DNA of 64,000 nucleotides from the IMG/VR virus record IMGVR_UViG_3300045282_000112, positions 1 to 64,000 of that record; one strand, written 5' to 3'. Position 1 is the first letter of the stretch. The number at the start of each line of letters is the position of its first letter. Position numbers and translations under genes: made by a program. The notes beneath the pieces were generated by a model, which made no database searches, had not been told where the DNA came from, and was given only the letters and a program-made list of their open reading frames with translations. This DNA is from a virus. Of the stretch, positions 1 to 63,288 are shown in pieces.

Positions 1-286
1 CAGGCAAATTACTCATTATGCGTAATTTGCCTCCGAACCGTTCGGCAACTTGCATGAACCTATTAGCCTGTTGTTGGCTCATCTCGAACTCTGCTTCTAT
101 CCACGGCAGGAAGTTGCCGTGCCCGATCTCCTCCTTGACCATGAGTAGTTCGCGACCGATGTCCAACACGTCCTCTGCGCTGCGCTTTAACTTTGCCTTG
201 ATGCGTTCCGCCGCCGCGCGCACGCTCTCACGCACACCCGGCTTGATGGCGGCATAGTTGAACTTTCCCATAATAATGATTTCCAT
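1..286 (-). CDS. DUF3102-like phage protein, N-terminal part (runs off window edge)
   Basis: Not in ORF track because it is open at the edge. Manual translation from ATG 286 (GGAGG upstream): MEIIIMGKFNYAAIKPGVRESVRAAAERIKAKLKRSAEDVLDIGRELLMVKEEIGHGNFLPWIEAEFEMSQQQANRFMQVAERFGGKLRIMSNLP. The IG..L..K...HG.F..W...EF.MS...A.RFM.VA pattern is characteristic of DUF3102. Confidence 0.8.
   Translation of the reverse strand, partial: MEIIIMGKFNYAAIKPGVRESVRAAAERIKAKLKRSAEDVLDIGRELLMVKEEIGHGNFLPWIEAEFEMSQQQANRFMQVAERFGGKLRIMSNLP
3..31. repeat. Palindrome GGCAAATTAC-N9-GTAATTTGCC inside DUF3102 gene (second copy at 40958-40988)
   Basis: Perfect 10-bp inverted arms; positions 1-31 match 40958-40988 at 30/31 nt. 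Confidence 0.9.
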
Positions 287-354
287 TGCTCTGGCCTCCA
301 CAAGAGATCGGGGTGACTTGCGCCACCCCGACCAATTGCTCTACATGCCTTCAG

Positions 355-1440
355 TTACTCGGCGGCTTCGGCTTGCTCGTCCTCCTCCAGCTCAGTCGCG
401 TCATCGACCTCGACAAAGCGGGGGAAGTGATCGTGCAGCTTGAAGTTCTCCGAGAAGCTATCCTCCCCCAAAACGAAGGCGTTGGATGCCCGAATAAGGA
501 ATGCCAACGTAATCATCTGGTTGAAGCGCTTGGCGTAGGCGTTCGACTTCTGCGCCTTCTTCGACGCCTCAAGGTTCTTGAGCAACAGCGCATGCAACTG
601 AGCGACCGGCGCGGACGCCTGCTCCGGGTTGGACAACCCGGTCCAGAACTCGTCCATCCGCTCCTCGCCATACAACTGAAGCTGCCGGTAAGCCACGAAC
701 GTCGCGACCTCCTTGTGCTTCACGAGCGTGACGCCGGGCCGATAACCTTCAGAATTGACCGCCGTTGCGACCGCGATCAGATCAGGGTTACTGTTGATGA
801 AGTCGATGATCTGGACCTTCGTCAACGTCGGCATCTTCAGGCGCTTCAGCCCCTTGCCCGCGATGGCATAAGCCTCGATGTCGTAATCGTGGCCGATCTG
901 CACCGCCTTGCCCATGACCGTAGCGTGGCCGTTGAAGCCTGCCGTGCGCAGGACATCAGAGACCGTGCGGGTCTTGCCGTTGTCGTAATAGGCAAAGAGT
1001 TGCGGGTCGTTGGAGACGCCATCGGCGACGATGTAGTTCGGGAATGAGGCACCGCCAAAAAGGCAGGCCCAAGCCCGATGCTGCAAGTTCATCGCCCGAC
1101 CATCATCATTGACGACAATGGTCTCTCCGGTGCGTGGCCAATCGCCATCCTGCATATAGCGGGCGTAGCGCTTGACCGTAGCGAGGCTCGGCTTGCGATT
1201 ACCGGAGTTGCGGATGAGCAGCAGCTCACAAAGCTGCGGCTCAACGTCATACCAACCGCTCTCAAGGGGCAACTTGTCCTGCGGCTGGGTCTTCGCCCAA
1301 GCTTCAAACTCCTCAACGGCGTTGGAGAAGTCTGATGGGGTAGCCCGGTCCAGATCAAGGGCGAACTGCGGCTTCCAGTCCGTCCTCCACGCTGTGCTCG
1401 AAAGCAGCAACGCGTTAAGCGTCGTCTTCTCTTTGGGCAT
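355..1440 (-). CDS. ParB/Srx-like N-terminal domain protein
   Basis: Start moved to ATG 1440 (AGGAGG RBS). NRKPS..TVKRYARYM..GDW..TGETI....DGRAMNLQHR resembles the phage ParB-like NR...V..YA.DM..G.W...GE.I.....G.L.DGQHR signature. Confidence 0.6.
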   Translation of the reverse strand: MPKEKTTLNALLLSSTAWRTDWKPQFALDLDRATPSDFSNAVEEFEAWAKTQPQDKLPLESGWYDVEPQLCELLLIRNSGNRKPSLATVKRYARYMQDGDWPRTGETIVVNDDGRAMNLQHRAWACLFGGASFPNYIVADGVSNDPQLFAYYDNGKTRTVSDVLRTAGFNGHATVMGKAVQIGHDYDIEAYAIAGKGLKRLKMPTLTKVQIIDFINSNPDLIAVATAVNSEGYRPGVTLVKHKEVATFVAYRQLQLYGEERMDEFWTGLSNPEQASAPVAQLHALLLKNLEASKKAQKSNAYAKRFNQMITLAFLIRASNAFVLGEDSFSENFKLHDHFPRFVEVDDATELEEDEQAEAAE

Positions 1441-1537
1441 GTGCCCTCCTATGTTGCCGTGCTCCAGAGCCTTCCGGTGGAAGGATGGAAGCTCCCGGCA
1501 ACGACCCAAATAAGCTATGCCATAAGCTTTGCAAGAA

Positions 1538-2449
1538 TTATTTCTCAGTGGCGGCAATAACCTTGGCAACGAAGTCGGTGCGTGGCTCGACCGCCTCCAC
1601 CTGCGCGTCGGTGTCACCGATGGCAAGCTTGGCGAGAGCCACTGCCTGCTGATACTGCGCCGGTTCCAGCATGTCGCGTGTCAGCACCGTGCGCACGTCG
1701 AACCAATGGCAGACGCGCTCGGCCTGCCGGTCCTCGCTCACACGCATGCAGCCCTCGGCGAACAGCGGCTCGCTGTCCTTGCCATCCGGGTAGAAGGGAA
1801 AGTTGATGCCGCTTTCCGCCAGCTCGCGACGCCCGGATGCCGTCTCGGCGGCCTTCCAGCAGAAGTTCAGGAAGCGCAAGCCATCGGCGACGGTCGGTGG
1901 CACGGGTGCAGTCCAACGCTCACACAGTCGTCCGAGAGCGTGCGAGCAGACATAAGCCAGCACCTCGGCGATGGACGCATCGTCGCGTGACGGCGTCACC
2001 CGGAACTCATGGCGCATCGCCTGCACGCCCTCCTCGCCGTGCTCGACCATGATCGCCAGCGGATGGGTCGTGGGTTCCAAGGTGATCAGGATCAGCGTGG
2101 CGTCGCGCGGCGCGCTGGAGAAACGCTTGCGCTCGGATCGCATGTGCATGGAGAAGCCGCGATCTTCCTGCGGGATCGCGTCGAACCAGCCCGACGCCTT
2201 GCGCAACAGCCCGATGCGGTTCTTGGGTCCACTCAGCTTGCCGAAGTCGCGCATGAGGAGATGGAAACCGTGCGGCCAGCGGGCCTCGCGCACGCTGATG
2301 TGCTTGGCATAGCGGTCGGCGTATTTGGGGCGCAGCGTGGAGACCATCTTGCTGGCTCCGATGCGTTCGCGCCGCTTCAGTTCACGTGAGACTTGTGCCG
2401 CGAACACGCGGCCTTCCGTAGAGATTTGATCCTTCACCGTCGCCTCCAT
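1538..2449 (-). CDS. hypothetical protein
   Basis: 303-aa ORF co-oriented in operon; no family recognised. Confidence 0.7.
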   Translation of the reverse strand: MEATVKDQISTEGRVFAAQVSRELKRRERIGASKMVSTLRPKYADRYAKHISVREARWPHGFHLLMRDFGKLSGPKNRIGLLRKASGWFDAIPQEDRGFSMHMRSERKRFSSAPRDATLILITLEPTTHPLAIMVEHGEEGVQAMRHEFRVTPSRDDASIAEVLAYVCSHALGRLCERWTAPVPPTVADGLRFLNFCWKAAETASGRRELAESGINFPFYPDGKDSEPLFAEGCMRVSEDRQAERVCHWFDVRTVLTRDMLEPAQYQQAVALAKLAIGDTDAQVEAVEPRTDFVAKVIAATEK

Positions 2450-2483
2450 AGAGTGATCCGCTCATATGGGGGCACAGCTTATA

Positions 2484-2909
2484 TTAGTCCACCTCCAATT
2501 CCACCGAAGCGCTCTTGAGTAGGCCCATGAACCACTCCCACTGCTTGTCGGTGAAGCTGACAACGGAGTAGACTTCGGCGCGGTCCTCAAGGCTGTCGAG
2601 GAAGCCCTTGGCCTTGGCGGACAGGTAGCAGCCCGACATGCGGATGCTGTGGACGAGGTCGCCGACATACTCGGCGTCGATAACCTGCTCTCTGACCGGG
2701 CGTGGCTTTGGCTTGGGCTGCGGTTGTGGCTGGGTGACGGGCACCGTGGTGAGCGTGGCGGTCAGGTCGTGCCAGTCACGCTCGGCGGCCCTCAGTGTGC
2801 GGGTGATCGCGGCGGCGGTCGCCGTCACCTCGCCAGCATGGTCAGACGAGAGCATCGGCAACAGCCGCGCCAACCGTTTGCACAACTCAACAGACAACGC
2901 CCGCGCCAA
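2484..2909 (-). CDS. hypothetical phage protein
   Basis: L.MLSSDHAGEV.A.A.AI.R.L.....DWHDL N-terminus, a pattern seen in alphaproteobacterial phage proteins; start uncertain. Confidence 0.65.
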   Translation of the reverse strand: MARALSVELCKRLARLLPMLSSDHAGEVTATAAAITRTLRAAERDWHDLTATLTTVPVTQPQPQPKPKPRPVREQVIDAEYVGDLVHSIRMSGCYLSAKAKGFLDSLEDRAEVYSVVSFTDKQWEWFMGLLKSASVELEVD

Positions 2910-2938
2910 CCTGTGCCCCCATATTGGCTCAACGTTTG

Positions 2939-3448
2939 TTATGCATGCGGGATCAGCAAGTGCAACATGTTACACGCCGCGTAGCCGGGAAACTCACGGT
3001 CGAGGCGGGCCGGGACCTTGTGGACGTTGCGTGCGATGATCGCGGTCGTGATGATGAAGGTGTCTTGGGTCTCTGCGAAGCGCTGAAAGAATTTGATCAA
3101 CAGCTGCACGCCGATGCGCAGGATGCCGTCCTGCACGCGCCGGTCATGGTGCTGCTCGGCGAGGAACGCAACGAGGCGCTCGGCCTTGCCGTCGAAGTTG
3201 GCACGCTGCGACAGCTTCCAATAGCTCTGCTCACGGGCATCGGCTAGACCGGCTGCCCGCATCTCGTCGGCAACAACCCTGAACACGCGCTTGCCTTCGG
3301 CCGAGGCGTCGCCGTTGATATTGACGTGCTTGGCTTCACCGCCCCACTCACCGAAGGCCATGAAGGCAGTGATCTTCTTGCGAACAGCATCGACCTCGCT
3401 GCGGGGCATTGCACGCAGCGAGGCGATCACGGCATCAGCGGTCGTCAT
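2939..3448 (-). CDS. hypothetical protein
   Basis: 169-aa ORF in operon. Confidence 0.7.
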   Translation of the reverse strand: MTTADAVIASLRAMPRSEVDAVRKKITAFMAFGEWGGEAKHVNINGDASAEGKRVFRVVADEMRAAGLADAREQSYWKLSQRANFDGKAERLVAFLAEQHHDRRVQDGILRIGVQLLIKFFQRFAETQDTFIITTAIIARNVHKVPARLDREFPGYAACNMLHLLIPHA

Positions 3449-3463
3449 TCAGCTCAGCCTTTC

Positions 3464-3691
3464 TCAGGCCGCAGCTCGTGCCGAGCCAGCGTGCTGCATA
3501 CGCAGCGAGCGGCGCTTGGTTGCCTTGTTGATACGTGACATGATCTGAGAAACACGCGCCTGTGTAATGCCGAGGAAGTCGGCAATTTCCACCTGACGGT
3601 AGCCCTGATTGTAGAGGGTGACGGCTTGCTTGCGCCTTGCCTCCGCGAGGTCGGCGCGTTCGTCCACCCGGTCGAGATTAAGTCGATACAT
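3464..3691 (-). CDS. helix-turn-helix protein (sigma-70 region 4-like)
   Basis: LYNQGYRQVEIADFLGITQARVSQIM is a typical HTH. Confidence 0.75.
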   Translation of the reverse strand: MYRLNLDRVDERADLAEARRKQAVTLYNQGYRQVEIADFLGITQARVSQIMSRINKATKRRSLRMQHAGSARAAA

Positions 3692-3731
3692 GGCCCTTGA
3701 AACTCCTGTTAGGCACCTTTCGTTGCCAAGG

Positions 3732-3759
3732 TATATATCGCAATATCAGCTATTTTCAA
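3732..3759 (-). promoter_or_regulatory. putative sigma-70 promoter of leftward operon
   Basis: Minus strand TTGAAA-N16-TATATA upstream of 3691; 9-bp inverted repeat TGTTGATGT-N9-ACATCAACA directly upstream (3762-3788). Confidence 0.45.
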
Positions 3760-4230
3760 TATGTTGATGTGACATAACGACATCAACACAATGACAGGTA
3801 TCGGCGGCTACAGCGTCACAGTCTTGGCGAGGTGATTTGATTGCATGGTTCCATGCCCTTCCGGCCGGGGAATTTTCGTCAAAAATTGCACGTTGGGTGC
3901 CAAAATGAAATTTCACATCAGGTCCTGCAATATCAACGACTTACAAGGTTTCGACCTTCTGCGCACATGACGCGCGCGATAAAGATATCTCTTACAGGTT
4001 AAGCTCGCTGCGCTCGCTTAACAGACCTACTCCACCTGCTGCTCGCTTCGCTCGCATCGTTGGAGTAGGTCTTGGAATAGGGTTGAAGAAAAGTAGGTTG
4101 GCTTCAGAGGATGAGGCTGGGGGTAGACTACCGCGCGCGCGACCCCCCCCCCTTGAAAATTAAGTTGCGCAGGAGGCTTGCAGGTCGCGCTCGACGAGCT
4201 TAGCTTGGCCGGTCTTTGGAGACCCCGACA

Positions 4231-35944: not shown

Positions 35945-37531
35945 TCAAGCGGCTTGCTGCATCAGTGTTGGGTCGGTTGCATCAAGCTCAAGGTGCGTCT
36001 CGACCAGCGCAGCGACGACCCTCAACTGGTTGACGAAGTCAGGCCGCATCAAAGCGTCCACCCTGTTGCGGTCGGTCGGGTTGCGTTCGCAGACCAGATA
36101 GCGAGTGAACAGGTCGGCGTTCTCCACCAAGCCCATTGACGCCATGCGCTTGTATTCGTGGATGATGAGGTTCCTGATCTCGATGGGGCTGGTGAAGCCG
36201 TTGATGCCCTTCGGCAGCGTGGAGAGCGCCGCGCGCGGGTAGGCACCTGTGATGCGCGCCCGCATCTGGCGCACGAAATACTGTGCTTGGAACATCGTGA
36301 TCGCGTCGGCCCAAGAGGGGTCCGGGTCGCCGAACACGTTATATTTGCGGCAGGTTCTCACGCGGTCGATGCGGCAGGTATGGTTGTCGTCGACCGTGAT
36401 CGTCGAGCCGCCTTGGTTGAGCAGCGTCTGCTTCTCGATGCGCGTGAAGCTCTCGTCGTCGTCGCTGCCTGCGCAGCAGTTGCGCAGCTCCAGCGTCTGC
36501 AATGGACGTGACAGTTCAGGAGGTGCCGCCCAGTGCGTTGTCGCGAGACCGCCGAGAGCCGATGCCCACAGCCAATATGGGATCACCGTATTTTTCACCG
36601 TGATGATCGACATGTGTGGGTCTTGCTGCGGGGCAAGGTAGTCGTAGGTCGCCTGCCAAGAGGCGTTGTTGAGGCCAGTGAAGACGTGGCCATAGAGTTG
36701 CCGGTTAGGTGCCCAGCGACCGGCTGCGTGGTCCATGAAGTCCTCGCATTGGGCGAGGAAGTGGGCGCTCTGGTAGCCCATCACGAACACGTCGAATGGC
36801 CGGTCCTGTATCGTCGAGAAACAGGCTGTCGGATTGTGCTCACCTGAGCCGTCGCTGGTCTGCTTGGTGATTTGCAGGCAGTGGCGCGCGATGATGATGT
36901 TCTTGGCACTGAGGTCGGCGCGACCGAAGCAGCCGACGTAGCTGACCTTCAGCCAATTGCCGACGGTGCCCGGGTAGCGTGCCGTGAGCAGCACCGTCTG
37001 GTGGCTGGTGTCCTTCGGGTCGATGGTCGCGAGCACACCGATCTCGCGGGCGTTGACCGAGTTACGGATCGACGCTGCGATGGTCGCGGCAGACCAATTC
37101 TTCTGCACGTTGAAGTGCACCGGGACGCCTTCGATGTGGAAGGTGCCAGTGCCGAAGAAGTTTTGGGTGCCGCCCCGGATCACGCGCACCTTGGCAGTGG
37201 CGCGAAATGCATTGTTGAGCGGGTCTGGGTCGTCGAGCGTCGAGGGAATGGCGATGCCCCAGATTTCCGCGAACGGTGCGTTGGAGCGGGCGAAGTCATA
37301 CATGCGCGCCAACATCGAGCCGCGCCCGAACAACTCCTTCGCGAGCGTGCCTGAGAGCAGGTAGGGTTGGTTGGGGACGTGCGTGCCCTCGCCGTAGCCC
37401 GCGCCCTGATTGGCTGAGCCGACAAGGCACATCCTGAGAGCGGGCGACCATGGCTCGGCGGCGGACGTGACCTCCGCATAGAACAGCGGCAAAAGCACGT
37501 CGGGAGGGATTTGACCAAAGGCGACTGGCAT
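35945..37531 (-). CDS. tail sheath protein, Mu gpL-like
   Basis: F..IP.....PLFYAE; LFG.GSML..M; RW.P..QLYGH; PLQTL.L; R...D.NRVD....D.VNQLRV.A. Confidence 0.92.
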   Translation of the reverse strand: MPVAFGQIPPDVLLPLFYAEVTSAAEPWSPALRMCLVGSANQGAGYGEGTHVPNQPYLLSGTLAKELFGRGSMLARMYDFARSNAPFAEIWGIAIPSTLDDPDPLNNAFRATAKVRVIRGGTQNFFGTGTFHIEGVPVHFNVQKNWSAATIAASIRNSVNAREIGVLATIDPKDTSHQTVLLTARYPGTVGNWLKVSYVGCFGRADLSAKNIIIARHCLQITKQTSDGSGEHNPTACFSTIQDRPFDVFVMGYQSAHFLAQCEDFMDHAAGRWAPNRQLYGHVFTGLNNASWQATYDYLAPQQDPHMSIITVKNTVIPYWLWASALGGLATTHWAAPPELSRPLQTLELRNCCAGSDDDESFTRIEKQTLLNQGGSTITVDDNHTCRIDRVRTCRKYNVFGDPDPSWADAITMFQAQYFVRQMRARITGAYPRAALSTLPKGINGFTSPIEIRNLIIHEYKRMASMGLVENADLFTRYLVCERNPTDRNRVDALMRPDFVNQLRVVAALVETHLELDATDPTLMQQAA

Positions 37532-53353: not shown

Positions 53354-55788
53354 CTCAGGCGGCCTTGCTTTACCAGCTCCTTGTAGGTCTTCTTCACGTC
53401 CCGGTAGTAGCTGTTCCAGCTCGGCGTATGCTTGACGCTGCCCAGCTCGTATTCGAGGCGCGCCATCTCGGCCATGGTCTCGTGCATGCCCTGCCGTGTG
53501 GATGCGCCACTGTGCTTGACGGCGTTCCACCACTCGGTCGAGTAGTCGGTGAGCCCGTCCTCGTCGGCCAGCTTCTGCCAGTTCAGGTTATGCTTCACGA
53601 AGCGTTCGTAGATCGGGAACTGCTTGTCGTAGGGCGGGGCGAGGCTGCCGTCGGGGTGCATCCATCCCTTCCACGGTTTGTCGGGGTCGGGGCCCGGCTC
53701 GTTGACGCCCGGCAGCGCCTTCTGCATGGCCTCGCTCTCTGCCTGCAGCGCGTCCAGCACCTGCTGATACTGGATGTGCATCACCTCGTGCGAGGTGACG
53801 CCCGCGATGGTGCCCGAGTTCAGCTGGTCGGGGAACATCAGCACGGTGCCACGCTTGTGGCCGCCGGGTGGCTGATCCATCGAGTAGGCCATGCCCGCCG
53901 CCATGTATTCCCGCCCGCCCAGCACGAAGCGCGCGTCGGAAGGCTTGCCGATCATCACCGTCTTCGGGTCTGCCCCCAGCTCCTCGGCGACGTTGCGCGC
54001 CTCGTTCAGCGTGTGGTGCACGCCCATCAGGGTTTCGCGGGATGCCCAGACGTAGGGGTCCTCGCTCATCGGCGGGTTGACGACGTAGGCGCGCTGCAGC
54101 TTCTCGGCCTCCGACCATGAGGTGACGCGCTCGCCATCTGTCCGCGCGTAGCGCTCGCCGCGCTTGGCGTAGAGGGTGGTGACGTGCTCCGGGTCGTAGC
54201 TCATCAGCACGATGTCGGGCTCGCCCTTGTTGAATTTGGCGAAGGTCTCCTTATTCCAGCCGTCGGGCTTGAAGGTCTCGTTCCACGGCAGGCGTGCGGC
54301 GGCGCGGAAGCCCGCCTCGGCGTAAGCCTGCGGCAGCACGGTGTCGAAGCAGTCGAGGCGTCGGCCGCCTTGATCGACCGCCAGCTGCAGCGCCGACAGG
54401 GCGAAGTTGTCCACCTTGCTGTCGTGGTGCTTGAACACCGAGACGATGTTGTCGCCGTCGAGCGCGAAGCCAGCCTTGCCGTCGAGCGTCGTGAACAGCC
54501 GCAGCTTGCGATAGTCGTCGGGGTCCTTGATCTCCACCGCCGTGCCGTATTTGGTCGAGGCGGCAGCCGCTGCGATGGCGTCTTGCAGATCGCGGAAGTC
54601 GGTGCCCGAGCGGATCATGCGGGTGTTCAGCTCTTCGAAGTGAGCTGGCGTCGCCTTGTTGGTCTTCAGGTAAGCCTTAAATCCCGGCGTCGGCCGGAAG
54701 ATCATGCGCCCACCGCTAGTAATTGCTCTAAAGCTTCTTCCTTTGTAAGGCTTGGATGAGCTGACAGGACTTCGCGGAGGAGCTGGTGCATACGGGGGGT
54801 TAGACCCTGCTCCAGCATGCGCCGTGCCTGTTCCTCCAGTGGCGGCCGATGCTCCTCCTCCTGATCCTGCAGCCGAAGGTGAGCCCCCGCCGCCCCCGCC
54901 GCCTTCTCCGGTCCATTGTCCGCCGCCCTCTTCCCCTGCGGGAACTCGCGGTTGGTCTGGGTCATACGCGTCAATCCTCCTGCTGTCGCTGCTCGCGGCG
55001 GCGACACGCTTTTTCAACTCGGTCCAGTGCAAAGTGACACTGGGCGCGACGCGTATGCCGCGCCCCTGTATAAGTGGGGTGCGGGCGATCACATCGCCAC
55101 GGTATACGTTAACAATATCGTCGATTGATACACCGCCGATGACCCCTACCTCGTTTTCTGAGGTGCCCTGCACACGGCGCAGGCGCTCGTCGACGGGTTG
55201 CCGGATGGCGATCACGTAGGCGGGCCGGTCCCAATCGGCCTTCTGCTGCTGCGGCGCGAAGCTGCTGGCGTAGGACGCTGCCACGCTCGGGTCAGTGGCG
55301 TAGTAGGTCAGGCCCTTCTGCGCCTCGCCGATGTTGTATTCGCCCTTGCTGCGCACCTCCCCCGTCGCTTGGATGGCTTCGAACTCGGCCGCCGCCATGC
55401 CCCGGTAGATGATACCGGCAGAGCGTGCGCCCGGAAGGTCGCCCTGATGCGGGGCAGTCGGGATCAGCTGGTCATGTTCCATGTCGACCGGCTTGCCCTC
55501 ATACTCCAGCACCATCCGCTCGTGGCGGTAGAAGCGTGGGTCGTAGTGACCTATCGTGTCGCGGTTGGCTTGGTAGGGCACCCGCTTCTCGGGTCCTGCA
55601 GGCGTGAAGCCTCCCTCGCCCGAGGTCCACTGCCCCGACGGGTCGCGTGGCTGGTCGGGATCGAAGTCCTGCCACCGCTGCAGCCGCTGGGGCGGGCTGT
55701 AGGGCTCGCAATCGAAATGCGCTACCCAAGCGTCCCGAAAGCGGCTGGCGCGCTCCAGCAGGGCTGCAGGGGGCAGGAAAAGGCTCAC
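53350..55788 (-). CDS. multidomain protein: ART-like, GNAT-like and HExxH zincin-like domains
   Basis: GTG 55788 overlaps upstream stop; YRG/YYATD/ENE; GFAL.G..IVSVF...GG..LDCFD..L...Y..AGF; HEVMH...TDYS..W...HETMAE. Confidence 0.75.
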   Translation of the reverse strand: MSLFLPPAALLERASRFRDAWVAHFDCEPYSPPQRLQRWQDFDPDQPRDPSGQWTSGEGGFTPAGPEKRVPYQANRDTIGHYDPRFYRHERMVLEYEGKPVDMEHDQLIPTAPHQGDLPGARSAGIIYRGMAAAEFEAIQATGEVRSKGEYNIGEAQKGLTYYATDPSVAASYASSFAPQQQKADWDRPAYVIAIRQPVDERLRRVQGTSENEVGVIGGVSIDDIVNVYRGDVIARTPLIQGRGIRVAPSVTLHWTELKKRVAAASSDSRRIDAYDPDQPRVPAGEEGGGQWTGEGGGGGGGSPSAAGSGGGASAATGGTGTAHAGAGSNPPYAPAPPRSPVSSSKPYKGRSFRAITSGGRMIFRPTPGFKAYLKTNKATPAHFEELNTRMIRSGTDFRDLQDAIAAAAASTKYGTAVEIKDPDDYRKLRLFTTLDGKAGFALDGDNIVSVFKHHDSKVDNFALSALQLAVDQGGRRLDCFDTVLPQAYAEAGFRAAARLPWNETFKPDGWNKETFAKFNKGEPDIVLMSYDPEHVTTLYAKRGERYARTDGERVTSWSEAEKLQRAYVVNPPMSEDPYVWASRETLMGVHHTLNEARNVAEELGADPKTVMIGKPSDARFVLGGREYMAAGMAYSMDQPPGGHKRGTVLMFPDQLNSGTIAGVTSHEVMHIQYQQVLDALQAESEAMQKALPGVNEPGPDPDKPWKGWMHPDGSLAPPYDKQFPIYERFVKHNLNWQKLADEDGLTDYSTEWWNAVKHSGASTRQGMHETMAEMARLEYELGSVKHTPSWNSYYRDVKKTYKELVKQGRLR
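54702..54965 (-). CDS. nested +1-frame small ORF, candidate immunity protein
   Basis: AGGAGG 10 nt before ATG 54965; 87 aa ending VLSAHPSLTKEEALEQLLAVGA; TGA overlaps an in-frame ATG of host gene. Confidence 0.45.
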   Translation of the reverse strand: MTQTNREFPQGKRAADNGPEKAAGAAGAHLRLQDQEEEHRPPLEEQARRMLEQGLTPRMHQLLREVLSAHPSLTKEEALEQLLAVGA

Positions 55789-56549
55789 AGAGCGAACAGC
55801 TCCTCCCACATCGCCTGCGCGTTGGCGAGCGCTTGCGTGGCAGTAGGCCCGCTGCCGAGGCACCTGCCAGTGTGCATGGCCACGAAGCTCTCGGCTTCGA
55901 ACTGCTCGCGGCTGTCCATGGCGTAGGGTGAAACGGCGTCCTTGTCGGCGTAGCGGGCGACGATGGCGTCAACCACATCGGGCCCGTGCGCGGTGCGCAG
56001 CTCCTGCATGAGGATGTGCCCGAACTGGTGCAGGAGCGTGCCGTCGGCGCTGCTGTCGACCATCAGGCCCTTCCACTCACGCTCGTGTGCAGCGAGCTGG
56101 TCGGGGTGCCACTGGCGGGCGTTGAGGATAAGCTTGCCGTCGCCCGCCAGAACGAACTCGCGGTCGCCGAGGTCGCGCATCTCGACCTTGATGGGGCTGT
56201 CGATCAACGGGGAATAGTCCTCCGCGAGCTGGTCCATGGCGTCCTTGGCGTTGAGCTTGGCCTCGGTCTGCTTCATGCGGTAGCTGTAGCTCGGGCTGCC
56301 GTCCGGTCGCACGTCCTCCTCTTCGCCTGCGTCGTCGGGTTCCACGTCCCATTCGAGCAGGTTGTGCATGGGCATGGCGAGGTCGGAGGCGTTGAACGCG
56401 CTCTCCGGGCCCCATGTGCCCGTGCGGTTCGACCATGCGCTGATGACAGTGGTCTCTGGATTGCGCACCTCGGCGGCGCGGAACTGCTCGCCCTGCGGGG
56501 AGGTGACGTTGTAAACCCGCCGTGCGTTGGGCGGTCTGTCGGCGGCCAT
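55785..56549 (-). CDS. protein with degenerate zincin-like domain (HQxxH)
   Basis: LLHQFGH...VSPYA..S.E.FEAE.F; AAGGA RBS. Confidence 0.7.
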   Translation of the reverse strand: MAADRPPNARRVYNVTSPQGEQFRAAEVRNPETTVISAWSNRTGTWGPESAFNASDLAMPMHNLLEWDVEPDDAGEEEDVRPDGSPSYSYRMKQTEAKLNAKDAMDQLAEDYSPLIDSPIKVEMRDLGDREFVLAGDGKLILNARQWHPDQLAAHEREWKGLMVDSSADGTLLHQFGHILMQELRTAHGPDVVDAIVARYADKDAVSPYAMDSREQFEAESFVAMHTGRCLGSGPTATQALANAQAMWEELFAL

Positions 56550-56583
56550 TAGTTGTCCTTACAAATCGTTTGTATATGGTGCC

Positions 56584-58977
56584 TCAGCAGTCCTTCTGCC
56601 AGCCGCAGCCGTCACCGGAGCGGTTGTAACCCTCGACGTATCCGCGCTCCGAGGTCTTCTCGATCTCGTCGATGCGCGCCTCCTCCTCGGGGCTCTTGTT
56701 CTCCTTCGCCACGAGCACGCGGCGCTCCTCGTAGAGCTGGTGACCCTCGCCGAACTTGTATTCGAGCAGCGCGTGGGTGTTGAACTGCAGCTCGGTGACG
56801 ATGCCGTCCTTGGTGCGGAAGTTGAGCATCAGGTCACGGTAGCCTGCCATGGGGGTGAGGAAGCGGTCCTTGACGCGGATCACGTCGTTGTTTTCGACGA
56901 AGTCCGCCACCGCCTGACGCACGGTCACGCAGTCGTCGAAGGCGACGGTAGCGCGCAGCACATCCTTCAATCCCTCGGGTGGCACCTTCTCGTCGCGCAT
57001 CTTGCGCTCGGCCGACGAGCGCGCCTTCATGGTGCGGGTGCCGGGCTCGGCACTGGTAGCGGGCGGGTAGGTGACCTTGCCGCCGAACTTCTGTGCAAAC
57101 TCCTCGACCGTGCTCATGAACTCAGGCTCGGCGGTCTTGCAGGCCGCATACAGCTCGTCGATGTCGTTGGTCGGCTGTATCTGCTGATCCGGCGGCTGGT
57201 AATCCGCGCCCATGTTCTGCGCGATGTCGGTCTTCTTCGCGACCGTGGCCGTGCCCTTCGACTGCGGCGCGGTCTGGGTCTTGGTGCTGCCGGTAACCTT
57301 GGTCTCGCTGCTGGAGCTGCCGCCACCGCCGGGGCCGAACTTGCCCTTGTTGTCGGGCTGGCCGCGCGGGTGCTTGCTCTCTTCCCACTCGTCGCGCGAG
57401 CGCACGCCGAGTAGCTGCCGCACATGATCAGGATCGTAGTCGCGCGTGTGCCGGTAGCGGCGCAGGTTGAGGCGACCGGCGCTGACCGGCTTGGCGTCAC
57501 GGGTTGGCTTGCCGCCACCCTTCTGGAACGGGCTACCACCACCGGGCTTCTGCTGCCCCTGCTGGCTCGGGTGCTGGTTGCCCATGGCGTTGCCCGCCAG
57601 CATCTCCTTGCGCTTCTCGGCCTCGGCTTGCGCTGCCTGCTCCTCGGGGCTCTGCATGCTTTCGAGCGCGAGCTGTTCCTGATCCTCAAGCGCCTGCTCA
57701 AGGCCCGGGTAGACGCCATCCTCGATCAGCTGGTTCTGCCGCCCGATGCGCAACGCCTCGGCGTCGACCAGCCCCATCATGACATCAAGGTTGGTGACAT
57801 CGGCCTTCAACTTGGAGACCGCCGCCTTCTCGGTGGCGGGCATCTGCCACAGCGGGTTCCAGATGTAGTAGATCGACGGGTCGCGCTTGCCCAGTGCAGA
57901 GCGGATCAGTGCATCGTCAAGAGAAGCAAGGGCGGGAGACAATACATTGGTCTGATCTGAGTTAACTCGGTCGTAGTAGTTACGGACATCACTCTCTCCA
58001 GTAGACTGTAGTCCAGCAGGGGACTGTCCCAGCATACGTGTAGCGGGGATGTCTGCTGCACCGGAGGCGATGAGGAGATACATCTGCAGGACATCGGGGA
58101 GTTGCGTGAAATTCGCATTGATGCGCTCCCACTCCTCCTCCTTGTCGAGGAGCAGCGTGTTGATCACCGACTTCACCGAGTTGGCATACATGAAGCGTGC
58201 GGTGAGCCGGTTCTGATACTCGGCGGTGGCGATGTTCTGCGACAAATCGGGGATTTTAATGATGTCGAACTTGCTTTCGGTGACCAACGTCGCGATGGAC
58301 TGTGTCACCAGCGTCGCCGACATCACGGCGTCCTGCACGTTCTGCAGCACGGGATCGCCCCAGATTTCCCCCATCATCACGGGGTCGGGCAGCTGCATGC
58401 CCTTCAGCACGATGACCCGCGACGGGTGTATCTGGAACTCGTCGCGCGACAGCTCGGTGCCAACGTCCATGTTGCGCGTGAAGTAGAGCGGCTTGCCGTA
58501 GAGCGGGTCCATCACGTCCTTGATGAGCGGACCCGTGCCCAGCGCCCAGCGTGAGACGGGAATGATGAACTCCAGATCGCCCTTGCCGACCTTCTCGAAA
58601 TTCAGCGGCTGGCTGGCGCGTCCCTGCTTGATGCCCATGATGATCGCCGCGCCGCCGTAGAGGCGCGCCAAGATCAGCGCCTCCTTCAGCACGCACTGCA
58701 CATCGAGGCGCGTCTCTTCGGCCTCCAGCTTCTCGATGACGTTGGTGTCAGCCTGCCACGCACGCCACGCGCGGGTGGCATCCTGTGCCGGGATGTCGAT
58801 CAGCTTGCGGGCCAGCCAATTGGCGCGGTAAGCGCTCTCCAGCTCATACTGTGACAGCGGGTTGAACTGGAAAAACGACGCGCCCGAGGCGGCCTTGTCG
58901 CGCCCCGGCACGCCGAAGCCTGCCATGAGGTTGATCAGGCTGTCCTTGAACTCGGCAGTCACCCCTTGATAAGTCAT
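56584..58977 (-). CDS. portal protein (DUF1073-type) fused to C-terminal RelA/SpoT-like nucleotidyltransferase
   Basis: Portal: Y..NWLARK.IDIPA.D.TR.W, ARLYGG, IHPSR, A.DIP.TR..GQSP.G..STGE.D..NYYD. C-terminus: K...S..RK, D.LRA, KDRF, GYRD, ELQ, H.LYE. Confidence 0.88.
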   Translation of the reverse strand: MTYQGVTAEFKDSLINLMAGFGVPGRDKAASGASFFQFNPLSQYELESAYRANWLARKLIDIPAQDATRAWRAWQADTNVIEKLEAEETRLDVQCVLKEALILARLYGGAAIIMGIKQGRASQPLNFEKVGKGDLEFIIPVSRWALGTGPLIKDVMDPLYGKPLYFTRNMDVGTELSRDEFQIHPSRVIVLKGMQLPDPVMMGEIWGDPVLQNVQDAVMSATLVTQSIATLVTESKFDIIKIPDLSQNIATAEYQNRLTARFMYANSVKSVINTLLLDKEEEWERINANFTQLPDVLQMYLLIASGAADIPATRMLGQSPAGLQSTGESDVRNYYDRVNSDQTNVLSPALASLDDALIRSALGKRDPSIYYIWNPLWQMPATEKAAVSKLKADVTNLDVMMGLVDAEALRIGRQNQLIEDGVYPGLEQALEDQEQLALESMQSPEEQAAQAEAEKRKEMLAGNAMGNQHPSQQGQQKPGGGSPFQKGGGKPTRDAKPVSAGRLNLRRYRHTRDYDPDHVRQLLGVRSRDEWEESKHPRGQPDNKGKFGPGGGGSSSSETKVTGSTKTQTAPQSKGTATVAKKTDIAQNMGADYQPPDQQIQPTNDIDELYAACKTAEPEFMSTVEEFAQKFGGKVTYPPATSAEPGTRTMKARSSAERKMRDEKVPPEGLKDVLRATVAFDDCVTVRQAVADFVENNDVIRVKDRFLTPMAGYRDLMLNFRTKDGIVTELQFNTHALLEYKFGEGHQLYEERRVLVAKENKSPEEEARIDEIEKTSERGYVEGYNRSGDGCGWQKDC

Positions 58978-59022
58978 GTCAGTTACTTACCGTCGAAAGG
59001 TCGGTTGCAAACTGCATATCCA

Positions 59023-59118
59023 TCACGTCCCTTCATCGGGCTGGTCACCGCAGCGCCACGCCAGCGAGACGAGGAAGCCGACGAGCGCACCAGCCAAGAA
59101 GATCAGGGTCTCAAACAC
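59023..59118 (-). CDS. small membrane protein (lysis-associated?)
   Basis: MFETLIFLAGALVGFLVSLAWRCGDQPDEGT; overlaps previous ORF. Confidence 0.35.
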   Translation of the reverse strand: MFETLIFLAGALVGFLVSLAWRCGDQPDEGT

Positions 59119-59221
59119 CGTAGTGCTGTTGTGCCCACATGATGCCGACGACCACGCCGATCACCATGCCGCCGAACATCGCGAGCACGGCAAACAGCGT
59201 GCACAGCGCGGCGGTCGTCAC
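59111..59221 (-). CDS. small membrane protein (lysis-associated?)
   Basis: GTGA-coupled to endolysin stop; MTTAALCTLFAVLAMFGGMVIGVVVGIMWAQQHYGV. Confidence 0.4.
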   Translation of the reverse strand: MTTAALCTLFAVLAMFGGMVIGVVVGIMWAQQHYGV

Positions 59222-59910
59222 ACCATCACCTGCACTTCACGCCGCAGCTTGTCGCCGCACTCCCTCGCGCCCTGCTCAGTGCTGTCGAAGGCGAGGCGCG
59301 TGTAGTCCCACTTGCCTTCCTGTGCGACGCCGCAATTGGCCTGCACCTCGGCGTGGCTGAGCACGGTCTGCGGCGTGACCGGGATGCCGTAGAAGACGCA
59401 GAGGTCGGCGACGACCGCGATCAGCACTTCCCATTGGTCCTCGGTCATCGGGTAGTCGCCTGCGTCGAACGGGCTTTCCTTCGCGCCCGACATGCAGCAC
59501 AGCGAGACGCCGATGGACCCTGTGTTGAAATTCTTGGTGTGCGCCGCGTAGGTGCCGTCGCTGGTGCTGACGTTGTCCTTGATCGAGTAGGAGCCACGCA
59601 CCAGCTTGCCGTCGCCCTCGATCAGGATGTGGTAGTGTGGTGTGTCACCACCGCCCGCCTTGTGCGTGCCAGCGGTCCAGTGGCAGATGACACGCTCCAT
59701 GTCGCAGTCTGGCATCCACGACGGCGGCACAATGCCGGGGACGGGGCCTTCACCACCCTCCTCGACCTCGGGCGGCGCAGGCAGCGGTGCGAACTCGTCG
59801 AGCGCATCGAAGATCGCCTCCTCGGTGAGCGGCCCATACATGCCGTCGCTCGGACCCGGGTCGAAGCCCAGCGAGCGCAAGCGGTCCTGCAGTTCGTCGG
59901 TTCGCATCAT
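59218..59910 (-). CDS. endolysin: peptidoglycan-binding domain plus N-acetylmuramoyl-L-alanine amidase
   Basis: LQ.RL..LGFDPG..DG.YGP.T; HWTAG, YH..I..DG, AHT...NTGSIG, SH.E. Confidence 0.9.
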   Translation of the reverse strand: MMRTDELQDRLRSLGFDPGPSDGMYGPLTEEAIFDALDEFAPLPAPPEVEEGGEGPVPGIVPPSWMPDCDMERVICHWTAGTHKAGGGDTPHYHILIEGDGKLVRGSYSIKDNVSTSDGTYAAHTKNFNTGSIGVSLCCMSGAKESPFDAGDYPMTEDQWEVLIAVVADLCVFYGIPVTPQTVLSHAEVQANCGVAQEGKWDYTRLAFDSTEQGARECGDKLRREVQVMV

Positions 59911-61535: not shown

Positions 61536-61744
61536 TTCTTGAACTTCGGCATACCGGGACGGTCAAGCCCGACATCGGGCAGCGGCTGCTCTGGCCTCGG
61601 CTGCGGGCGCACCGAGCGGGCCGCCTTCATGCGTGTCGCCATCTCGCGGATGAACTCGTGGCGCGTGATGCCCATTGCGTCCCACGGCGTCTGCTTCTTG
61701 TCGCCGGTCGCGGGCTTCGCGGCGGTCTTCGCTGCTGCTACCAT
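61532..61744 (-). CDS. hypothetical protein
   Basis: GGAG RBS within terL 3' end; 70 aa. Confidence 0.55.
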   Translation of the reverse strand: MVAAAKTAAKPATGDKKQTPWDAMGITRHEFIREMATRMKAARSVRPQPRPEQPLPDVGLDRPGMPKFKN

Positions 61745-63288
61745 AGCCTTGCTCCTCCGAACACCTTCTGTGCCAGAATGTTGCTGGGAACGTCGCCGAC
61801 CCAGCTCATGTCGCTGCGGTAAGTAGAGCCCAGCGTGAGCTTGGAGAACGCGCCTGCGGCTGCATCCACCATGTCAACGTAGGCTCCGTTGGGGAAGGTC
61901 TCGTGCTCGCCGATGAACTCCTTGTTCCACTCGGCGGCGAGGATCGACACGTTGCCTGCCTGAACTTGGGCGGCGTAGGGATCGGCGCGGATGTGCTTGG
62001 CATCGGTGACCTTGTCGGCCTCCACCTTGTAGCCCGACAGCATGCGCACCGTGGCCTCGGCGCTGTCCTTGCCACCTGAGCCGGGCTCTTGCTCTACCAC
62101 GGTCAGCACGTTGTTGCCCACGTCCTGCCGGTCGAGCTGTGCTGTCTGCAGGATCATCTTCTCGCGGTCGAGCGCCGAGAGCTGCTTGCGGCGCACGTCG
62201 GTGACGATGAAGCGCCCGTCATTCAGCTTCGACATGCGCACGCCCGCAGTATAAGCACCACCCATTTCTGTGGCTGCTTTGTCCCAGTAACGGACAGTCT
62301 TGGCGATGTCCTTGGGTGCTGCTTGCACAACACGAAATTGCTCGATGGGGAACATACCCCCGCCAGCAATGATCGGGTTCTGCTGGTATAAGCTCACCCA
62401 TGAGGCTTGGCTCAGGCCACGGCGGCGTTCCTCTAGGAACTCCAGCGACTTGAACTCGGGGAACAGCGCCTCGCCCTTCTTGCGGTGCGCCTCGTCCTTG
62501 ATGGCGATGGCCGGGTAGTCGAGCACCACGGTCTCGGGGAATTTTTCGAGGAAGCGACCGGCCGGATCGTCGAGGTGCCAGCGGGTCAGCGTCATCAGCA
62601 GCGCGGCGTGATCCGAGAAGCGGGTGAAGAAGTCGTCGGTGAGCCAGCTCCACGTCGCGTCGCGCACGGTCTTGGAATTGGCCTCGCGCCTGCCCTTGAT
62701 CGGATCGTCGATGAAGCCGAAATCAAGGCCCTTGCCCGTGACCTGTCCCGACACCGTCGTGTTGCGGAAACTGCCCTTGAATGCGCCCTGCACGGTCGGG
62801 TTAGTCGGCGTGTGCTCGCCCATGTATTCGAGCAGGTTGTTGTTGCGCATGCCCCCGACAGAGCGGCCGAAGGTGGGGAGGCGAGCACCGAACACTGACT
62901 TGAAGCGGTCGCCGTCCATCATGCGCTGCAGTGAGACGTTGACGCCCTGCCCGAGGTCGTCGGAATAGCTGGTGAACAGGCACTTGAGATTTGGATTGCG
63001 GCCCGCCACCCATGCGATGAAGTCGGTGACCACGGTCGTCTTGCCGTGCTGTGGTGGTGCCATCAACACAAGCTTTGGCCGCTCACCGTTCATGAAGCGG
63101 TAGTAGAACGCCTCAAGATGGTCGCATACTTCCTTGATCCACCAGCCGCGAACCAAGTCTTTCTCACGGATGTGACAACGGAAATTGTAGAAGAACTGTC
63201 GCGCCTCGCAGCGCGCCAACTCCTCTACCAATGCTACATCACGGCTGTTCTTGACCTTCGGCAGGAGGTCAGTGGTAAATCCGGTCAA
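61738..63288 (-). CDS. terL: terminase large subunit
   Basis: Walker A MAPPQHGKT; TGKG....IDDP.K; TRWH.DD; YQQ.P; WD.A; EQEPGSGGK; FP.G...D.VDA. Confidence 0.95.
   Translation of the reverse strand: MTGFTTDLLPKVKNSRDVALVEELARCEARQFFYNFRCHIREKDLVRGWWIKEVCDHLEAFYYRFMNGERPKLVLMAPPQHGKTTVVTDFIAWVAGRNPNLKCLFTSYSDDLGQGVNVSLQRMMDGDRFKSVFGARLPTFGRSVGGMRNNNLLEYMGEHTPTNPTVQGAFKGSFRNTTVSGQVTGKGLDFGFIDDPIKGRREANSKTVRDATWSWLTDDFFTRFSDHAALLMTLTRWHLDDPAGRFLEKFPETVVLDYPAIAIKDEAHRKKGEALFPEFKSLEFLEERRRGLSQASWVSLYQQNPIIAGGGMFPIEQFRVVQAAPKDIAKTVRYWDKAATEMGGAYTAGVRMSKLNDGRFIVTDVRRKQLSALDREKMILQTAQLDRQDVGNNVLTVVEQEPGSGGKDSAEATVRMLSGYKVEADKVTDAKHIRADPYAAQVQAGNVSILAAEWNKEFIGEHETFPNGAYVDMVDAAAGAFSKLTLGSTYRSDMSWVGDVPSNILAQKVFGGARLW

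Follow-up and report, generated by a model that had tools for sequence, protein, structure and literature searches.

What is an enzyme of the kind that bacteria use as toxins doing at the end of a phage portal protein? The question is raised by a gene in a 64,000-nucleotide stretch of viral DNA, referred to here as the window, which comprises the first 64 kb of a linear, 84,383-base IMG/VR virus record (IMGVR_UViG_3300045282_000112; CheckV completeness of 84%) obtained from soil metagenomes. The source is an uncultured, contractile-tailed soil phage of ~84 kb, and the gene (56584–58977, minus strand) encodes a 797-aa protein in which a portal is joined through a flexible linker to a domain that sequence and structure models assign to the RelA/SpoT synthetase superfamily. 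The answer favored here, which we hold to be probable though by no means assured, is that the sole portal of this phage carries a Tas1-like enzyme that would be silenced by a small companion module, cut free, ejected together with the DNA, and put to use in pyrophosphorylating a nucleotide of the host. Such a protein would be the portal-borne counterpart of the Apk2 toxins that are borne on MuF proteins.

The fusion gene consists of one uninterrupted open reading frame (ORF), as the ORF list and translation both indicate and as the initial annotation had stated. The segment on which that annotation focused, 56584–57480, corresponds to the last ~299 of the 797 residues. Its description of a portal part, a Q/G/K-rich linker, and a tag motif is borne out by Pfam, PHROG, and the translation, and all of the synthetase motifs that it named are present: KARSSAERK (residues 651–659), KDVLRAT (671–677), VKDRF (702–706), GYRD (712–715), ELQF (729–732), and HQLYE (746–750). 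Pfam and NCBIfam searches with the whole protein detected the portal only, and the enzyme surfaced only once the C-terminal 200 aa served as a query of their own.

Residues 1–470 (57568–58977, minus strand) form the portal domain. Pfam PF06381 (Phage_portal_3) matches residues 44–395 with an E value of 7.5e-99 and 331.2 bits against a cut-off of 33.8, spanning profile positions 1–355 of 357. The portal family phrog_146 extends over residues 11–470 (E 9.6e-119), and TIGR01555 is matched with 242 bits (E 8e-72; cut-off 196). The closest solved portal homologue is that of Pam3 (8hds_A; E 3.9e-95 over residues 11–441), which is deposited as 12 chains, and a PDB sequence search also placed the solved gp19 of E217 among the relatives of this domain. 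As PF06381 matches nothing else in the 84,383-base record, the protein is the phage’s sole portal. The genes for the terminase, a MuF-like protein, a DUF2213 protein, the major head protein, and the tail sheath lie on the same strand, placing the portal in the setting of a head and packaging module. Portals are dodecamers that sit at the DNA exit, and their C-termini point into the capsid. Since the C-terminus lies inside, up to 12 copies of the enzyme would be enclosed in each virion, beside the DNA exit; the same number had been proposed in the initial annotation, and it follows from established portal architecture and from the 12 chains of the Pam3 homologue.

The portal–enzyme fusion is real and not a product of assembly. 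Logan contigs from four other soil runs, belonging to three studies, were aligned to positions 56400–59100, and the frame, which had been flagged initially as needing confirmation, is intact: no indel occurs in the contig pieces across 56974–57759. The junction of portal, linker, and enzyme is covered by overlapping pieces at 56974–57216, 57087–57237, 57132–57356, 57235–57528, 57319–57584, and 57463–57759. Within the ORF, 36 single-base differences are listed, which a script scored as 31 synonymous and five not. Three of the changes fall in codon 340 on one contig and jointly leave Ser as Ser, while two in codon 245 jointly leave Leu as Leu. Once such multiply hit codons are combined, two amino-acid changes are left, T395A and V338I, both in the portal part. 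In residues 471–797, all eight differences are in third positions and synonymous, including the three natural differences of the linker (codons 552, 570, and 571). Because the differences in this part are synonymous only, the linker and enzyme domain must be translated and under purifying selection.

Residues 598–797 (56587–57186, minus strand) are, on sequence, profile, and modeling evidence, a RelA/SpoT-superfamily synthetase of the toxin type that is closest to Tas1, with the fold and the catalytic Asp and Glu intact. A RelA/SpoT-type synthetase had been recognized at the outset, and the present searches narrow this to the toxin-type members, with Tas1 as the closest solved relative by both sequence and fold. 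When the last 200 aa were compared with all PDB sequences using phmmer, Tas1 was the only match (6ox6_A; E 2e-5, about 23% identity). Among 1.84 billion proteins, the same query found 1162 cluster representatives with E ≤ 1e-3, of which 244 also pass E ≤ 1e-10. A family profile and alignment were built from 43 of the shorter relatives; in what follows, domain numbering plus 597 gives full-protein numbering. Against the PDB, this profile matched Tas1 at 1.9e-25, SaSAS (8vx3, an exported Streptomyces synthetase) at 2.2e-8, and YwaC at 1.3e-6, with RelP, Rel, and RelA weaker. An AlphaFold2 model of the domain based on the 43-sequence alignment was confident, with a predicted local distance difference test (pLDDT) value of 94.5 and a predicted template modeling (TM) score of 0.88. 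Foldseek comparison of the model with the PDB placed Tas1 first (E 1.5e-8, TM 0.65), followed by 8vx3, RelP, SAS1, and Rel. In total, 70 PDB chains were reached at E ≤ 0.001, and the matches listed are all RelA/SpoT homologue (RSH) or small alarmone synthetase (SAS) enzymes or Tas1.

Seven residues are invariant across the 43 family members (D672, K703, Y713, R714, D715, E729, and Y749), and K651, K659, and R675 are nearly so. The putative catalytic residues are Asp672 (56962–56964) and Glu729 (56791–56793), both on the minus strand, and the regions around them align with the Tas1 segments KDLARNT and GEIQVN, respectively. We take the basic residues to be those of the syn1 motif, the Asp to be that of syn2, and the Glu to be that of syn4. 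The last ten residues of the fusion, GDGCGWQKDC (56587–56616, minus strand), include two cysteines; a DG[ND]G.GW motif at the C-terminus of the enzyme is conserved in close relatives, with the cysteine pair occurring only in the three closest.

Between portal and enzyme lies the low-complexity, Q/G/K-rich linker (residues 471–597; 57187–57567, minus strand), within which residues 529–562 are matched by phrog_113. The linker contains a short tag, HPRGQPDNKGKF, which is followed by a Gly/Ser run (57337–57372, minus strand). A six-frame scan of the record for the underlying pattern ([HQE]PR, two to nine residues, G, any residue, then W or F) yielded ten matches. Four of these are in long ORFs, all belonging to the portal gene and two cargo genes downstream of it, and each of the four precedes a glycine run and a further domain. 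Of 153 relatives of the enzyme that were examined (P0003–P0155), 26 have the strict tag no more than 200 aa ahead of the enzyme, mostly the closest ones, and in the short, stand-alone enzymes of this group it is located close to the N-terminus. From these positions, we infer that the tag is probably a signal for loading, for cleavage, or for both. A comparable logic is known from the capsid-targeting peptide of the internal proteins of T4. No published description of the tag peptide was found in a literature search under several spellings.

The gene that follows the fusion encodes a 254-aa protein (55785–56549, minus strand), the N-terminal ~75 aa of which (56325–56549) constitute a candidate immunity or inhibitor module on the basis of homology, synteny, and complex prediction. 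A free form of the module is found in a related locus (L002), where a 72-aa ORF overlaps the stop codon of the enzyme-bearing gene and aligns with the first ~75 residues of the 254-aa protein, with 15 positions invariant across three sequences. In six of the 153 relatives, the module is part of the enzyme polypeptide itself, as a cis-fused segment immediately C-terminal to the synthetase. Among 33 related loci on viral and metagenome contigs, a hidden Markov model of the module detects it in 13, in each case directly behind the enzyme match, with no occurrence elsewhere in these loci. In one of these (L003, 6630–6821, minus strand), module and enzyme gene are on different strands and run toward each other, while they are co-directional everywhere else. 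Its association is tightest with the closest enzymes: of the 13 best-matching loci (tblastn E ≤ 4e-30), two end within 50 nt of the match, and the module is present in the other 11 of 11, each of which has at least 100 nt downstream (two of the module matches are weak, at E about 4e-5, and are probably the same sequence twice, and one is truncated where the contig stops). In most of the more distant loci it is missing.

Complex prediction with the 43-row enzyme alignment and a 3-row module alignment gave scores of 0.79, 0.78, and 0.79, compared with 0.00 for the best of three controls; of 80 solved complexes, 58 reach the mark used for this score, as do 2 of 110 mismatched pairs. At least 98% of contacts are common to the runs, and the pLDDT of the partner is ≥ 84. 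The predicted interface comprises D75, G115, Y116, D118, E132, Q134, K144, and H149 in domain numbering, i.e., the catalytic and acceptor site, and the candidate immunity module is thus predicted to bind over the active site of the enzyme. Since IapK is reported to block the acceptor site of Apk2 (PMC12226406), the mode predicted for the companion module is a known one. A word-index search with the module alignment returned the L002 protein alone, and a structure look-up in the Atlas returned an 81-aa, mostly viral cluster (TM 0.63) and otherwise unrelated families. The rest of the 254-aa protein (residues ~76–254; 55785–56324, minus strand) has HQFGH in place of the zincin motif HExxH, followed by SPYAMDSREQFEAESF, and from sequence it looks like a zincin-type fold minus the catalytic Glu. 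The protein has no Pfam or PHROG match and no PDB sequence match at E ≤ 10.

How widely the enzyme domain is distributed, and on which carriers, was examined in phage records, protein relatives, and contigs. A tblastn search of 50,697 phage records with the whole protein matched 1458, none of them over ≥ 80% of its length, so the fusion is present in no catalogued phage of that set. With the enzyme part as query, the same records yielded one phage only, Bordetella phage vB_BbrM_PHB04 (MF663786; L001), which is listed twice. Viral contigs searched with the single domain gave no related loci, and an alignment of seven sequences gave five. Among the 153 relatives, 75 were scanned with Pfam, so the count of portals is a minimum. 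A portal akin to that of the window was detected by phmmer in four: P0003, a 1322-aa protein from an 85-kb contig, combines portal, an FAD/NAD oxidoreductase-like part, and an enzyme domain that is 59% identical; P0008 is a portal-bearing fragment with 65% identity; P0030 consists of portal and enzyme; and P0046, of 1585 aa, has the anti-CBASS enzyme Acb1 in addition to portal and enzyme. A fifth relative, P0037, carries the enzyme on a Mu-type portal according to Pfam. Two of the 33 related loci have a portal, as a separate upstream gene in L017 and in the same frame in L025, where an open frame of at least 1327 aa (2–3982, plus strand) that is ended by the contig edge includes portal, a ParB-like part, enzyme, and a GNAT-like part. 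The order of modules in L025 is portal, ParB-like part, tag, a helical and probably membrane-active part, tag, synthetase, tag, and GNAT-like part, with one of the three tag copies ahead of each of the last three modules.

In sum, the same enzyme domain is found on no fewer than six further portals. These belong to two portal families, so the domain has come to be on portals at least twice independently. In a set of 74 mid-length relatives, the other carriers include MuF (three), DUF2213 (three), eCIS core (three), VgrG-type GPD (one), and PAAR (one). Its presence on several scaffolds indicates that the enzyme is cargo shared by multiple delivery scaffolds, of which the portal is one. For example, the DUF2213 proteins P0005, P0007, and P0023 have tag, synthetase, and companion module where the DUF2213 protein of the window has an N-terminal ChaB domain, so the N-terminal end of DUF2213 proteins looks like a further site at which cargo can be exchanged.

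These observations can be accommodated in a single proposed sequence of events. A flexible linker joins the Tas1-like pyrophosphokinase to the C-terminus of the portal, and during virion assembly the small N-terminal module of the next gene would cover the acceptor and catalytic site, so that the enzyme is held off. Cleavage in or close to the HPR...G.F tag, for which the head protease is a conceivable agent, may then release the enzyme from the portal, and once freed it could exit with the DNA into the newly infected cell. There it would pyrophosphorylate the 3′ OH of a nucleotide with ATP as the donor, (p)ppApp being the most likely product. The resulting drain on ATP would stall host metabolism and perhaps ATP- or nucleotide-dependent defenses early in infection. 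The Acb1 domain that neighbors the enzyme in P0046 fits a counter-defense toolkit of this sort.

A number of points weigh against this account. Release is its weakest link: as long as a domain is attached to the portal, it is held in the capsid. The phage is uncultured, and the fusion is known from sequence alone. Pfam RelA_SpoT (PF04607) scores 14.9 bits on the isolated domain, below its cut-off of 27 (E 0.034), and a six-frame search of the whole genome with this profile gave no match; among the 74 mid-length relatives, PF04607 is reached at E ≤ 1e-5 by six. The syn3 acceptor motif reads Y-R-D-L-M (D-x-M), with D715 invariant in the subfamily. The companion module bears no sequence likeness to Tis1, the Tas1 immunity protein, at E ≤ 10, and it is modeled poorly by AlphaFold2 when alone (pLDDT 54); it could be either a distant form of Tis1/IapK or a family of its own. 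The structure of the Tas1–Tis1 complex has already been solved, and the score of the module–enzyme pair may therefore be in part memory. Finally, an Aph1-type HD hydrolase (PF13328) was not found in the record, which is 84% complete.

Three other explanations were considered in light of these points. One holds that the fusion is an artefact of assembly or frame, or else that the enzyme domain is a decayed pseudo-enzyme kept as a structural extension. In its favor are the nature of the record, a linear and incomplete metagenome assembly, and the Pfam cut-off that is not reached; it is contradicted by contigs from three other studies that bridge the junction without indels, by differences in the enzyme part that are all synonymous, by six further portal–enzyme fusions, and by invariant catalytic residues together with a confident structure model, and we regard it as highly improbable. 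Another, which is unlikely but deserves more weight than the first, is that the enzyme is never delivered. It would instead stay on the portal in the capsid, or be trimmed and thrown away at maturation, and act in the producing cell, either in late metabolic shutdown or in the sensing or feeding of nucleotides at the packaging vertex. Cleavage of the enzyme from the portal is hypothetical, and the portal stays in the virion after ejection. Furthermore, the T7 portal Gp8 is described in a 2026 preprint as binding and inhibiting RelA and SpoT in the infected cell (10.64898/2026.01.27.700999), i.e., portals can affect alarmone metabolism outside the virion. Yet an ATP-draining enzyme that was active late would vie with packaging, itself driven by ATP; the tight linkage of the inhibitor module speaks for an enzyme kept silent in the producer; and the occurrence of the tag and enzyme cassette on MuF, DUF2213, and stand-alone proteins fits a cargo better than a role specific to portals.

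The remaining alternative retains the packaged enzyme and changes its chemistry: the product could be (p)ppGpp or both alarmones, or the acceptor could be something else, such as the CCA end of tRNA or a signaling nucleotide of a defense system. Pyrophosphorylation of the tRNA CCA end is the activity of toxic small alarmone synthetases (toxSAS) of the FaRel2 and CapRel types. The syn3 acceptor site is G-x-N in Apk2 and S-x-H in (p)ppGpp synthetases (PMC12226406), and in alignments with the phage domain Tas1 and SaSAS show G-x-N. With D-x-M instead of either, and with GYRD invariant in the subfamily, the product of the phage enzyme may not be (p)ppApp. Moreover, the second-best solved relative, SaSAS/SaEAS (8vx3), takes both adenine and guanine acceptors (PMC12691689), and the Acb1 neighbor in P0046 hints at counter-defense. 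The motif itself is of limited guidance, since the specificity of Apk2 was not converted by swapping syn motifs (PMC12226406), which means that the acceptor motif does not decide the product and that products are not predictable from motifs. Against a different chemistry, Tas1 is by far the best profile match (1.9e-25, compared with 2.2e-8 for SaSAS, while the (p)ppGpp synthetases get no better than 1e-6), and structures of the CapRel or FaRel type are absent both from the profile matches in the PDB at E ≤ 1 and from the Foldseek matches listed. We judge this alternative rather improbable as a whole, though a good deal less so than the other two. On the delivered, Tas1-like reading, (p)ppApp is the best guess from sequence for the product of the portal-borne enzyme.

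The delivered portal fusion has clear counterparts among known systems, the nearest of which is Apk2. These MuF-fused (p)ppApp synthetase toxins are described from temperate phages of Bacteroides caccae, S. pneumoniae, M. haemolytica, and P. multocida, with IapK/BcTis1 and Aph1 as their immunities (PMC10083569, PMC12226406). As with Apk2, a Tas1-like synthetase is located on the C-terminus of a head protein within the head module, and the next reading frame encodes a small protein or module that is predicted to block the acceptor site. The carrier, in contrast, is the essential, 12-copy portal, and the MuF protein of this phage is separate and toxin-free. The acceptor motif is D-x-M here and G-x-N there, and the partner module, which has no Tis1 sequence likeness, is part of the larger 254-aa protein. 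Unlike in Apk2 phages, neither an Aph1-type hydrolase nor an integrase (PF00589) was found in the record; the hydrolase is variable even in Apk2 loci, and since the record is itself 84% complete, lifestyle is not settled by the lack of an integrase match.

Tas1 (Apk1) and Tis1 form a type VI effector–immunity pair of Pseudomonas aeruginosa (6ox6), and the phage domain shares the positions of the catalytic Asp and Glu with Tas1. Unlike the fusion, Tas1 reaches its target by way of a secretion system, on a PAAR spike, and not in a capsid, and its acceptor motif differs. The phage polyvalent proteins offer another parallel, as portal-fused effectors of this class (PBECR RNase, 2H phosphoesterase, and InPase, e.g., BcepF1.124) have been read as packaged and injected cargo (Iyer et al. 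2017, PMC5512222). Loci of that kind and the present one share an effector enzyme fused to a head protein and multi-enzyme neighbor genes, here of 837 and 634 aa, with the same tag ahead of further domains. In the part of the polyvalent-protein survey consulted, RelA/SpoT domains are placed on MuF and within polyvalent proteins, not on portals (PMC5512222).

In Bordetella phage PHB04, the gene directly following that of the portal encodes a 493-aa protein with a homologous GYRD domain at its C-terminus (35.9% identity, E 4e-7). The enzyme gene of this phage (L001, 7008–9273) is followed by a 69-aa ORF and then an HD-type hydrolase annotated as a (p)ppGpp synthetase/hydrolase. Unlike in the window phage, the PHB04 enzyme is on a separate gene, and its 69-aa neighbor is not the companion module (no match at E ≤ 1). 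PHB04 is a cultured phage and could serve as a laboratory model for the GYRD subfamily. Lastly, CapRel-type fused toxSAS resemble the phage system in that an inhibitory element may be in the same polypeptide as a RelA/SpoT-type toxin, as is possible in the six cis-fused relatives of the 153. In contrast to the phage enzyme, CapRel is a host defense that is triggered by a phage capsid protein and modifies tRNA, and it is not among the sequence matches or the listed fold matches.

The surroundings of the fusion gene are those of a late module of a contractile-tailed phage, which runs on the minus strand from ~20 kb to 64 kb according to Pfam and PHROG matches; all genes described below are on this strand. 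Upstream of the fusion in the same module is the large terminase (61738–63288; phrog_38, E 2.3e-68). An amidase-type endolysin (59218–59910) with a peptidoglycan-binding-like N-terminus lies between the terminase and portal genes, an unusual position for a lysis gene. Downstream of the 254-aa gene are the two tag-bearing cargo genes. The first encodes 837 aa (53350–55863) and contains tag copies at 55627–55653 and 54913–54954, each followed by a further module. The only match of this protein is phrog_2563, at residues 446–534; by eye, it shows an ADP-ribosyltransferase-like R-S-ExE layout, a GNAT-like part, and HEVMH zincin-like motifs, and from its sequence it appears to be multi-enzyme cargo of the polyvalent kind. 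The second encodes 634 aa (51629–53533), matches Pfam DUF7178 (E 4.7e-20), and has a tag copy at 53147–53173.

Beyond the cargo genes, the MuF-like minor head protein is encoded separately and without a toxin domain (49963–51048). It matches Pfam Phage_Mu_F at E 1.4e-6, with 29.4 bits against a cut-off of 29.6, and PHROG families for minor head and head morphogenesis proteins. Next is the ChaB and DUF2213 protein (47734–49206), which PHROG names a head maturation protease (phrog_530, E 6.8e-90; DUF2213, E 1.9e-50; ChaB, E 9.2e-19). The late module also includes the major head protein (46250–47188) and the tail sheath (35945–37531).

Both the cargo and the logic of this system are known. What sets it apart is a carrier, the portal, that has yet to appear in the literature, together with an undescribed partner module and a deviating acceptor motif. 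Fusions of MuF with RelA/SpoT domains were predicted in 2012 (PMC3482391) and characterized as Apk2 in 2023–2025 (PMC10083569, PMC12226406). A 2025 survey of carriers includes signal peptides, LXG, XopAD, SPP1/MuF, DUF4157, and Rhs/PAAR, with no portal in its main text (PMC12691689), and in the available text of this survey and of a preprint (10.1101/575399) the word “portal” refers to web portals only. A published portal–synthetase fusion was not found in a literature search, which did not reach supplementary files.

A broader idea can be put forward more tentatively, as a possibility that we consider doubtful on balance. The GYRD subfamily may be a third kind of head-borne alarmone-type toxin, with a product or acceptor distinct from those of Apk1 and Apk2 and its own, hitherto undescribed family of ~70-aa inhibitors, encoded alone, in cis with the enzyme, or as part of the next gene. 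The peptide formed by HPR...G.F and glycines, which here stands ahead of this enzyme and of all the other enzyme modules encoded from portal to MuF, may be a general signal for capsid loading and cleavage. If this is true, the tag would let phages hang interchangeable enzymes on portals, on MuF or DUF2213 proteins, or on nothing at all.

According to the Apk2 work itself, whether head-borne toxins are carried in the virion and injected is still an open question (PMC10083569). Fusion to the portal makes packaging unavoidable and fixes both copy number and position, and it therefore offers the cleanest case for asking about the release of the enzyme, its timing, and its effect on the newly infected cell. 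The companion module provides a second testable handle, as a new candidate inhibitor of alarmone-type toxins, and a product not seen before is conceivable given the unusual acceptor motif. The recurrence of the tag, in turn, points to a rule by which enzymes are addressed to the interior of the capsid, and such a rule, if confirmed, would aid in reading the unannotated genes that lie between portal and MuF.

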